64,000 nucleotides of DNA from NCBI GenBank assembly GCA_963764725.1, contig CAVXTM010000009.1:32001-96000 (forward strand), given 5' to 3'. The position numbers and the translations under genes are program-made. The notes under the pieces are model-generated. The model ran no database searches, had not been told where the DNA came from, and worked only from the letters and a program-made list of their open reading frames with translations. Position 1 is the stretch's first letter, and every line of letters begins with the position of its first letter. This DNA comes from an uncultured Gammaproteobacteria bacterium. GTDB lineage: Bacteria; Pseudomonadota; Gammaproteobacteria; JACCXJ01. This document shows, in pieces, positions 55,194 through 56,470 of the stretch.

Positions 55194-55221
55194 CCCGCCG
55201 GGAGAGCAACCGTGTTCAAAG

Positions 55222-56169
55222 TCAAGTGTTTTGCAGCTGCCAAGGGGCATTATTTTTCAACATGGCATTCATAATGGTCAGCAGTTTCCGCATACAGGCG
55301 ACGATCACCACTTTGGCTGGTTTCCCCGCCTGTTTGAGTCTCTCAGCGAAGGCCTTGAGGACAGAGTTGCACCGGATGGCGGTAACGGTCGCCATATACA
55401 GAACGGCTCTGACATCGGCCCTGCCGCCCCAGATGAAGCGCTTACCCCGGTGTTTTCCGCTGTCGTTCGCCAGCGGCGCCACGCCCACCAAAGCTGCGAT
55501 CTCGCGGCGATTCAAGCTGCCGAGTTCCGGGCACTTAGCCAGCATCGTCAAGCTGGTGACGGCGCCGATACCAGGAATGCCTTGCAGCAGATCATCCTTA
55601 GCCCGCCAGGCCTCGGAGGCGCGCAAGCGTTTGGTCAAATCAACGTCGAGATCAGCAATGCGCTTATCCAGCCAAGCGATGTGCGCCACTAAGCTTTTGC
55701 GTGGCAGTTTCGAGGCCGTGCCTAAACGGAGTGTTTCTTGAACGCGTATCTCGATCAATTGACGGCGCCGCGTCAGGAGTTCATCAAGCTCACGGGTGTC
55801 CGCGTCCTTGATAGGTCGCACCGCAGGCCGGATGGCGCGGGCGAAGGCCGCCAGGACGGCGGCGTCAACCGAGTCGGTCTTCGCCAATTCTCCCGTCGCC
55901 TTGGCGAAATCGCGCGCTTGACGGGGATTGATGACGGCGAGGGGCAATCCTTTCGCCGCCAGTTCACTGGCCAGCCGCACTTCCAGGCCGCCTGTGGCTT
56001 CCATAACGATCAACGTCGGTCCAACGGCCACCAGACGCTTGACGAGTTGAGCGATGCCCTTGTCGTCATAAACGACACGCAGGGCTTCTCCAGTGGGTTC
56101 AATACCAATATCCAACGTGCCTTTGGACACATCAATGCCAACAAACTTCTCTACAGTGTTCTCGCTCAT
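55222..56169 (-). CDS. IS110 DEDD recombinase/transposase
   Basis: GIDVSK, MEATG, KTDSVDA, IPGIG, DSGK, ACMRKL. Confidence 0.96.
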
Positions 56170-56171
56170 AC

Positions 56172-56345
56172 CCCTCCTTGCAAAAATACGGGCTTACAGG
56201 CCCCAGCAACCGTTCGGGTTGTCGGTGAGAAAACGGCGCGACGCTCTTTGCTCTCCCACGGGCTTGATGTCCCAAGGGCTGGACGAGCTGCCGCACCGCA
56301 ACCAAAGGTCTGTGGATTGATGCCCACCAGCCCCCACAGTCCGAA
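56172..56345 (-). ncRNA. Predicted IS110 bridge RNA
   Basis: Upstream non-coding end carries four guide segments matching the element's own target and donor junctions. Boundaries approximate. Confidence 0.8.
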
Positions 56346-56384
56346 ATACATTTTCATTAATTTCTACAAAATAGAACATACAAG

Positions 56385-56470
56385 GGTTGGGGTGAGGGGA
56401 TCAGAATACTCGAAGCATGTGTTTGATTTGATTCCCCTCATCCTAACCTTCTCCCGGAGGGAGAAGGGAC
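56385..56470. repeat. Inverted pair of REP-like palindromes (REPIN-like)
   Basis: GGTTGGGGTGAGGGGA ... TCCCCTCATCCTAACCTTCTCCCGGAGGGAGAAGGG. Confidence 0.85.

Follow-up and report, generated by a model that had tools for sequence, protein, structure and literature searches.

An IS110-group insertion sequence in REP hairpins, with a probable IS621-type bridge RNA in its left end

Predicted bridge RNAs cover 85.7% of the catalogued IS110 elements, as well as orthologues in the thousands (PMC11208160, available sections). Two described members, IS621 and ISPpu10, are the closest functional parallels of the element analysed here. IS621, from Escherichia coli, was described in the available sections of PMC11208160 with a DEDD plus serine recombinase, a CT core and a REP target, and with a promoter that arises across the circle junction. 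The RNA comes from its left end and is made up of a 5' hairpin and two stem-loops that each contain an internal loop. In these loops the 5' strand is sense and the 3' strand antisense, and every guide includes the core. Pairing of the right donor guide is partial, and an rG:dT wobble occurs naturally in the left target guide (PMC11208160). ISPpu10, from Pseudomonas putida, is likewise an IS110 element with a bridge RNA, is inserted at CT in a REP beside a DNA stem-loop, and has many identical genomic targets (bioRxiv 10.64898/2026.03.19.712850, available sections).

The window (the whole stretch of 64,000 nucleotides, contig CAVXTM010000009.1, positions 32,001 to 96,000) contains an intact insertion sequence at 55205-56384 on the minus strand, with a length of 1176 bp plus the CT core. 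The best explanation of this locus, with a probability of about 0.9, is an IS110-group insertion sequence with a bridge RNA of the IS621 type that reads the arm of a REP hairpin. The IS621 layout with a CT core had been proposed from the sequence alone, and the protein, the catalytic residues, the long left end, the core, the fold and the covariation of the guides all fit it. Each of the IS621 properties listed above has its counterpart here, those of the RNA and its promoter as predictions. The present element differs from IS621 in its target, CCCAACC-CT-CTCCC, and in its left donor half. It differs also in size, with a protein of 315 aa against 326 aa and a left end of 213 bp against 191 bp (PMC11208160 and PMC11208158, available parts). 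The right end is only 15 nt, with the -35 box overlapping the stop codon, and the host lineage, judged from the relatives of the element, is environmental and Betaproteobacteria-like. A distant DNA search of E. coli genomes with the left end returned only three chance matches of 33 bases at E 10. The 'different natural specificity' given to the element in the sequence-only reading is true, yet it is expected of any IS110 member. From ISPpu10 it differs in the side of the stem-loop, which in ISPpu10 lies 5', with the left target as its 3' arm, and here lies downstream (10.64898/2026.03.19.712850, available sections).

Anatomy of the element and its recombinase

The element has the CT core on both sides, a left end of 213 nt, one gene and a right end of 15 nt. 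The left flank ends in CCCAACC-CT ahead of TGTATG, and the right end closes with ACGGTTG-CT ahead of CTCCC. Both sequences reconstructed earlier, the target CCCAACC-CT-CTCCC and the donor junction ACGGTTG-CT-TGTAT, are therefore correct. The anatomy was observed directly, and the features are as follows, from the left flank to the right, with the evidence in brackets.

56385..56391, minus strand: left target half CCCAACC, the REP 5' context (sequence and copy comparison)
56383..56384, minus strand: CT core, left copy (empty-site matches in the genome stop exactly here)
56170..56382, minus strand: left non-coding end, 213 nt, predicted to encode the bridge RNA (sequence, alignment and fold)
56375..56380, minus strand: -10 box TATGTT of a predicted promoter formed only across the circle junction (orthologue comparison)
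56374-56377, minus strand: GTTC, inverted-repeat partner of the right-end GAAC (sequence)
56307..56342, minus strand: predicted 5' stem-loop, GGACUGUGG...CCACAGACC (fold prediction)
56234..56298, minus strand: target-binding stem-loop with a 13-bp outer stem, an internal loop and an inner hairpin (RNAalifold and covariation)
56275..56283, minus strand: left target guide UCCAGCC+CU, 5' side of the first loop (pairing and covariation)
56251..56257, minus strand: right target guide GGGAG+AG, 3' side of the first loop (exact reverse complement of CT-CTCCC)
56249..56250, minus strand: candidate handshake guide CA in the target loop (position and complementarity to donor positions 6-7, TG)
56171..56218, minus strand: donor-binding stem-loop with outer stem CCC/GGG, an internal loop and an inner hairpin (RNAalifold and covariation)
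56205..56213, minus strand: left donor guide ACGGUUG+CU (identical to the right-end tip plus core)
56177..56188, minus strand: right donor guide region UAUUUUUGCAAG (partial complementarity to the donor)
56173..56177, minus strand: Shine-Dalgarno GGAGG, overlapping the 3' strand of the donor-loop outer stem (sequence and predicted pairing)
55222..56169, minus strand: recombinase gene, 315 aa (RuvC-like DEDD domain, coiled coil and Tnp domain)
55220..55225, minus strand: -35 box TTGACT, overlapping the TGA stop codon (sequence and orthologue comparison)
55207..55221, minus strand: right non-coding end, 15 nt, with GAAC and the left donor half ACGGTTG (sequence)
55205..55206, minus strand: CT core, right copy (sequence and copy comparison)
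55200..55204, minus strand: right target half CTCCC, in the 5' arm of the REP hairpin (the same in 6/6 copies)

The 315-aa protein was matched by PF01548 (E 4.9e-22, 78.8 bits) and PF02371 (E 8.3e-18, 65 bits), both above the cut-off, and it scored 203 bits with the NCBIfam model NF033542 ('IS110 family RNA-guided transposase'), for which the cut-off is 140. The best relatives of solved structure were ISCro4 (9t56, E 1.7e-40) and IS621 (8wt6, E 1.1e-34). Alignment with the ISCro4 transposase (PDB 9t56) extended over residues 8-311 and compares the protein alone. Residues D13, E57, D99, D102 and S237 were aligned with D11, E60, D102, D105 and S241 of IS621 (chain numbering offset by 2), and the roles of the catalytic residues in IS621 were taken from the available part of PMC11208158. 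The exact protein is already present in public collections, where it has no name. Its size had been singled out as 'compact'; proteins of the family range from 300 to 460 aa, with IS621 at 326 aa (PMC11208158, available part), and a length of 315 aa, lying inside this range, is therefore not notable.

A sub-terminal inverted repeat of 4 nt, GAAC...GTTC, brackets the 14-bp donor. At least three of its four positions were complementary in 14/18 orthologue rows, with the variants AAAC/GTTT and CAAG/CTTC. Short sub-terminal inverted repeats of 2-3 bp around the donor have been described for the IS110 group (PMC11208160, available sections), and the present repeat matches them. The same repeat bears on whether the element is of the IS1111 type, with a seekRNA encoded in the right end, which would be in keeping with a protein of the same family. 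A right end of 15 nt cannot hold such an RNA, the repeat has 4 nt and not 7-17, and the structured, covarying RNA sits in the left end. With the right end too short and the repeat of only 4 nt, the element is not one of the IS1111 type, to which we give hardly any chance.

Fold and guides of the left end

Sixty-six related loci were fetched from other genomes, mostly metagenome-assembled Rhodocyclaceae, Gallionellaceae, Chromatiaceae and others. For the window and the 19 loci with usable left ends, an alignment was made of the sequence preceding the start codon. L017 was omitted from the alignment (the left part of the RNA is missing), as were L037 (the same element as L034) and L039 and L044 (too divergent, the left end of L039 not being definable). 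RNAalifold on the 20 sequences produced two successive stem-loops of the same plan, each with an outer stem (13 bp in the first), an internal loop and an inner hairpin. Over 22 pairs and 20 orthologues 96.3% of the cells were paired, and 11 pairs were changed on both sides. In the shuffle control of this fold 0/500 reached any of the five measures, and when the partners were slid by 1-3 columns pairing fell to 32-49%. Helix 1, the target stem, was 94.6% paired, with changes on both sides in 9/13 pairs. Helices 3 and 4, which belong to the donor stem-loop, were 98.3% and 100% paired; here two outer pairs were changed on both sides, in one sequence each. A 5' hairpin (at or below -9 kcal/mol) was predicted upstream in 12/16 orthologues, where the sequences are unrelated, a count made without a shuffle control. 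The left end of the window folded alone was not more stable than its shuffles (z -0.74; 44/200 as good), and support for the structure is therefore comparative. An Rfam search found no matching family; its sole match was sX15, on the opposite strand, at 21.9 bits against a gathering threshold of 55 (E 0.94).

Four guides had been read from the minus strand of this region, and all four strings were found exactly: the left target guide TCCAGCCCT at 56283-56275, the right target guide GGGAGAG at 56257-56251, the left donor guide ACGGTTGCT at 56213-56205 and the right donor guide TTTGCAAG at 56184-56177. The left target guide, described there with two wobble-compatible differences, indeed forms 7 Watson-Crick and 2 wobble pairs with CCCAACC-CT. 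Chance occurrence was estimated from 100,000 mononucleotide shuffles of the 213-nt left end. The exact 9-mer of the left donor guide was present in 112 of these, the exact 7-mer of the right target guide in 2353, a 9-mer pairing with the left target (Watson-Crick or wobble) in 15,775 and [AG]CAAG in 27,713, and all four strings together in none. By these counts the left donor and right target guides are strong alone, and the other two are weak. The left target and right donor guides gain weight only from position and comparison.

Guides and flanks were then compared within each orthologue, and their covariation was observed directly. In the right target guide five bases vary, and these were complementary to the right flank of the same locus at 77/90 positions in 18 orthologues (L030 and L032 were dropped for lack of flank). 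Permutation of the flanks among the orthologues gave a mean of 41.0, and 0/20,000 permutations reached 77. Nine orthologues scored 5/5, six scored 4, two scored 3 and one scored 2. Eleven different guides occur among the 18 orthologues tested, with guide-flank pairs such as GGATG/CT-CATCC, CTTGA/CT-TCAAG, CCCCA/CT-TGGGG, GGGGC/CT-GCCCC and GGTTT/CT-AAACC. For the left target guide, the 7 bases before CU agreed with the left flank at 77/126 positions, against a permutation mean of 51.2 (0/20,000); when wobble was allowed, the score was 92 against 70.8. L018 and L032 were dropped from this test for lack of flank, and in L019 and L025 the anchor rule settled on a wrong CT, which makes their left-target scores (1/7 and 3/7) too low.

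On the donor side, the 7-mer of the left donor guide was the same as the tip of the locus's own right end in 23/23 loci, both having been located with the same loose pattern. It occurs in four variants, ACGGTTG, ACAGTTG, ACAGTCG and ATAGTTG. The second core position of this guide is C or A, and not U, in 7/23 loci, among which the element of the window is not included. The right donor guide is weaker than the other three. Its string and location were as first read, but its complementarity is only partial: CAAG pairs with CT-TG by Watson-Crick pairs, and then follow one G.T pair, one U-A pair and mismatches. The base beside CAAG makes the G.T pair in the window, and is A, which gives a true pair, in L032, L034 and L038. 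This guide and the donor TGTAT are nearly invariant in the 20 orthologues, and no covariation was seen between them. The right half of the IS621 donor appears to be TGTAT, as in the present element. The right donor guide of IS621 pairs discontiguously (PMC11208160, available sections); by analogy, an upstream UAU that pairs discontiguously with ATG may fit the same pattern.

Candidates for handshake guides were present in both loops. In the target loop, CA follows the core-pairing AG and is complementary to donor positions 6-7 (TG), with both sides invariant. In the donor loop, the base after CAAG is G, which is complementary to target position 7, a C in 18/18 left targets. A handshake-guide model has been put forward in PMC11208158 (available part), and the positions of CA and G would be consistent with it, though they are invariant here. 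The features of the family that can be tested in sequence are otherwise all present, the right donor guide and the handshake guides being consistent with it and invariant or nearly so.

The left end might instead be an mRNA leader only, in which the 9-mer and the REP-like strings are sub-terminal repeats that the recombinase binds as DNA. The left donor guide does repeat the right-end tip directly, the fold of this one copy is no better than its shuffles, and no RNA ends were seen in the contigs. Against this, the stems of both loops keep their pairing by compensatory changes (the 11 pairs and 0/500 shuffles given above). In addition, the 3' loop strand is antisense and the 5' strand is sense, and both track the flank of their own locus, which a model of DNA sites does not predict. 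The close relatives IS621 and ISCro4 have moreover been solved with bridge RNA. A leader without a bridge RNA was accordingly judged very improbable.

Copies, REP targets and mobility

The genome contains six copies of the element, of which four have open frames and two are broken. Copy C18:199153 is 100% identical to the element of the window. In copy C18:73691 the differences are confined to the first 62 nt of the left end and a 28-nt insertion. Copy C10:249080 is interrupted by a 1054-bp insertion at left-end position 24, and C10:194795 and C18:332584 have frame-breaking indels. The guide region is without differences among the six copies. These copies and the position of their target sites are direct observations. 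The right flank is CT-CTCCC in 6/6 copies, and the left flank is the REP context CCCTCAC-CC(C/T)(A/C)(A/G)CC-CT in 5/6; in C18:332584 the left flank is unrelated, with GT instead of CT. CT thus flanks every copy on both sides, but for this one left side. The sequence-only reading had suggested looking for other copies in the same REP position, where five of the six copies were found. The left target halves at the occupied sites are CCCAACC, CCTAACC, CCTAGCC and CCCCGCC. The core lies within the 5' arm of a hairpin, CCCTCTCCC-N3-4-GGGAGAGGG; this arm is composed of the last two bases of the left target, the core and the right target, and the hairpin closes downstream.

Sites with CTCTCCC number 560 in the genome, and at 18 of them at least 6/7 left-target positions can be paired to the guide. 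The REP context CCCTCA(C/T) is present at 14 of these 18 sites. All 18 are empty, and many free targets are therefore left. In a 1222-nt contig of the DNA run X1, one of these empty sites, C15:228955, continues into the element, which makes it an insertion polymorphism at the predicted position. X1 is possibly the assembly's own sample, so that the polymorphism is variation within the population and does not represent an independent habitat. The element has been mobile recently.

The left target guide is at least two positions off every natural target. At the site in the window the differences are wobble-compatible, and a true mismatch comes on top at the other occupied sites. A REP that fits the guide perfectly is absent from the genome, which could mean that the layout is that of a bridge RNA and the element is inactive in its present host, the mismatches marking its arrival from another host. 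Two of the six copies are broken and one is interrupted, and the circle junction went unseen in the contigs of four runs, all of which would agree with inactivity. Two copies are nevertheless 100% identical, a third departs from them only within the first 62 nt of its left end, and in the metagenome contig the element fills a REP site which the assembly shows as empty. IS621, too, is naturally inserted at sites that require an rG:dT pair (PMC11208160, available sections). Inactivity in this host is judged improbable, though somewhat less so than the leader reading.

Separately from this, the left target guide was seen to fit several local REPs through G.T and U.G pairs. Guide positions 5 (G) and 1 (U) form wobble or Watson-Crick pairs with REP positions that are variable, and one bridge RNA could therefore read the whole family of REP variants. 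That the guide is degenerate by design is a tentative suggestion, which we hold to be rather doubtful. Equally tentative is a second and separate suggestion, that a transcript cannot fold into the bridge RNA and be translated into the recombinase at once: the ribosome-binding site lies in the 3' strand of the donor-loop stem, and the two events could therefore exclude each other on the same transcript. The location of a ribosome-binding site inside the donor-loop stem is of note to specialists in its own right, and may have a regulatory meaning.

Predicted junction promoter, proposed mechanism and meaning

A promoter TTGAAC-N18-TATTTT, pointing into the left end, had been proposed to form upon circularisation. 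This string is present, but its -35 box is not conserved, and a better predicted promoter, TTGACT-N17-TATGTT, which is conserved, lies across the same junction. Its 17-nt spacer consists of the tip of the right end, the CT core and two bases from the start of the left end. Both boxes agreed with the consensus (TTGACA, TATAAT) at 4/6 positions or more, at the same offsets, in 16/18 orthologue rows. The right end is only 15 nt, and the -35 box therefore overlaps the stop codon. A right end of 15 nt with a stop codon inside the -35 box is an observation of specialist note.

Metatranscriptome contigs from three runs of two studies cover the left end. The X15 contig spans 56197-56347 and the X16 contig spans 56211-56322, both with 0 differences, and the X17 contig spans 55994-56375 with 3 differences. 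These contigs are at most a weak hint of expression, as strand and ends are absent from them and DNA was possibly present in the libraries. No circle junction was seen in the contigs of the three RNA runs and one DNA run, in which uncovered parts are uninformative.

The mechanism proposed for the element is modelled on IS621, from which we infer the transcription start, the binding of RNA by the protein, catalysis and reprogrammability. Excision to a circle would join the right end to the left end and thereby create the sigma-70 promoter TTGACT-N17-TATGTT. Transcription from this junction promoter would proceed through the left end, giving a structured RNA of ~190 nt, and would continue into the recombinase gene. 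The RNA would consist of the 5' hairpin and the two stem-loops with internal loops. Its first loop would pair with the REP target CCCAACC-CT-CTCCC, the 5' strand UCCAGCCCU with the bottom strand and the 3' strand GGGAGAG with the top strand. The second loop would pair with the element's own junction ACGGTTG-CT-TGTAT, exactly in the case of ACGGUUGCU and in part only for the strand ending in GCAAG. The 315-aa DEDD/serine recombinase would then exchange strands at the CT core, leading to insertion into the 5' arm of the REP hairpin.

What is known of the IS110 family is unchanged by the present element. It adds a natural bridge recombinase that is well documented and whose 14-bp target and donor are defined; the evidence consists of six copies, many empty targets, an insertion polymorphism and orthologues in which guide-to-flank covariation is seen at the resolution of a single element. 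With a protein of 315 aa, a length of 1.18 kb and a right end of 15 nt, it may be a further orthologue for engineering, and it offers a natural case for the study of wobble tolerance at REP families.

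Elements and REPs flanking the IS110 element

Features beside the IS110 element in the window are listed by position and strand.

53612-55193, both strands: IS4/IS50-like element, adjoining the right target half of the IS110 element
56410-56475, minus strand: second REP, inverted and lying a short way upstream of the target REP
56542-56859, plus strand: adjacent gene for a 105-aa DUF2007 protein (PF09413, E 1.9e-14)

The IS4/IS50-like element contains an 885-aa open frame (PF14706 and PF01609) and has the termini CTGTCTCTTGATCGG and CTGACTCTTATACACA. Elsewhere in the genome, copies were located at C10:155276-156870, C11:403842-405233 and C15:339037-340030. 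Both termini are preceded by CTCTCCC-N3-GGG, as though the element had entered the loops of REP hairpins and duplicated 9 bp. The inner-end 9 bp of the window copy match the outer-end 9 bp of the C10 copy, suggesting that flanks were exchanged between copies.

The second REP reads CCCTTCTCCC-TCC-GGGAGAAGG, followed by GGTTAGGATGAGGGGA, and forms a convergent REP pair with the target REP. Many metatranscriptome contigs were stacked on window positions 56416-56470.

Other IS110 copies and relatives in the host genome

Three of the six copies of the IS110 element in the host genome (G000) are described here.

C10:248658-252819 (L004): copy split at left-end position 24 by a 1054-bp insertion (C10:249104-250157)
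C18:73691-74908: copy with CT+TGTATGTT, a 10-nt repeat of the core and left-end tip, in front of it
C18:332584-333766: decayed copy with several frame-breaking indels

The insertion in L004 separates the -10 box from the RNA; its 324-aa open frame contains CxxC pairs and may encode an IS1595-type transposase. The copy at C18:73691-74908 differs from the other copies within its first 62 nt only, apart from a 28-nt insertion; such a structure would result from a nested insertion and subsequent recombination of two copies. The left flank of the decayed copy is non-REP sequence, with GT where the CT core would stand, and an empty REP target (C18:332388) lies ~200 bp upstream.

A second, truncated IS110-group element was found at C2:154300-155000 on the minus strand (L015), retaining only the first ~55 codons of its recombinase. 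Its left end begins CT-TGTATC, and its two-loop RNA is 74% identical to that of the window over 114 nt. The target-loop strands are unlike those of the window: the 5' strand, ...GTGCGTCCT, stands opposite a left flank that reads ...CTGCATC-CT. Six more IS110-family DEDD domains, belonging to other elements, were located in the same genome (C11:179043, C16:84392, C16:93691, C1:454811, C8:29049 and C10:247262), one of them on C10, ~1.4 kb upstream of L004.

Donor guides of orthologues and the Rfam match

In the left-end alignment of the window and 19 related loci, left donor guides ending in CC or CA despite a CT core were seen in rows L028, L031, L032, L034, L036 and L038, and likewise in the loci L037 and L044 outside that alignment. 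In these guides, position 2 of the core would form a C.A or A.A mismatch.

The sole Rfam match was to sX15, a Xanthomonadaceae sRNA, at window 56165-56305 on the plus strand, opposite to the bridge RNA. With 21.9 bits against a gathering score of 55 (E 0.94), this match is probably due to chance. One may ask whether sX15 might itself be derived from an IS110 left end.
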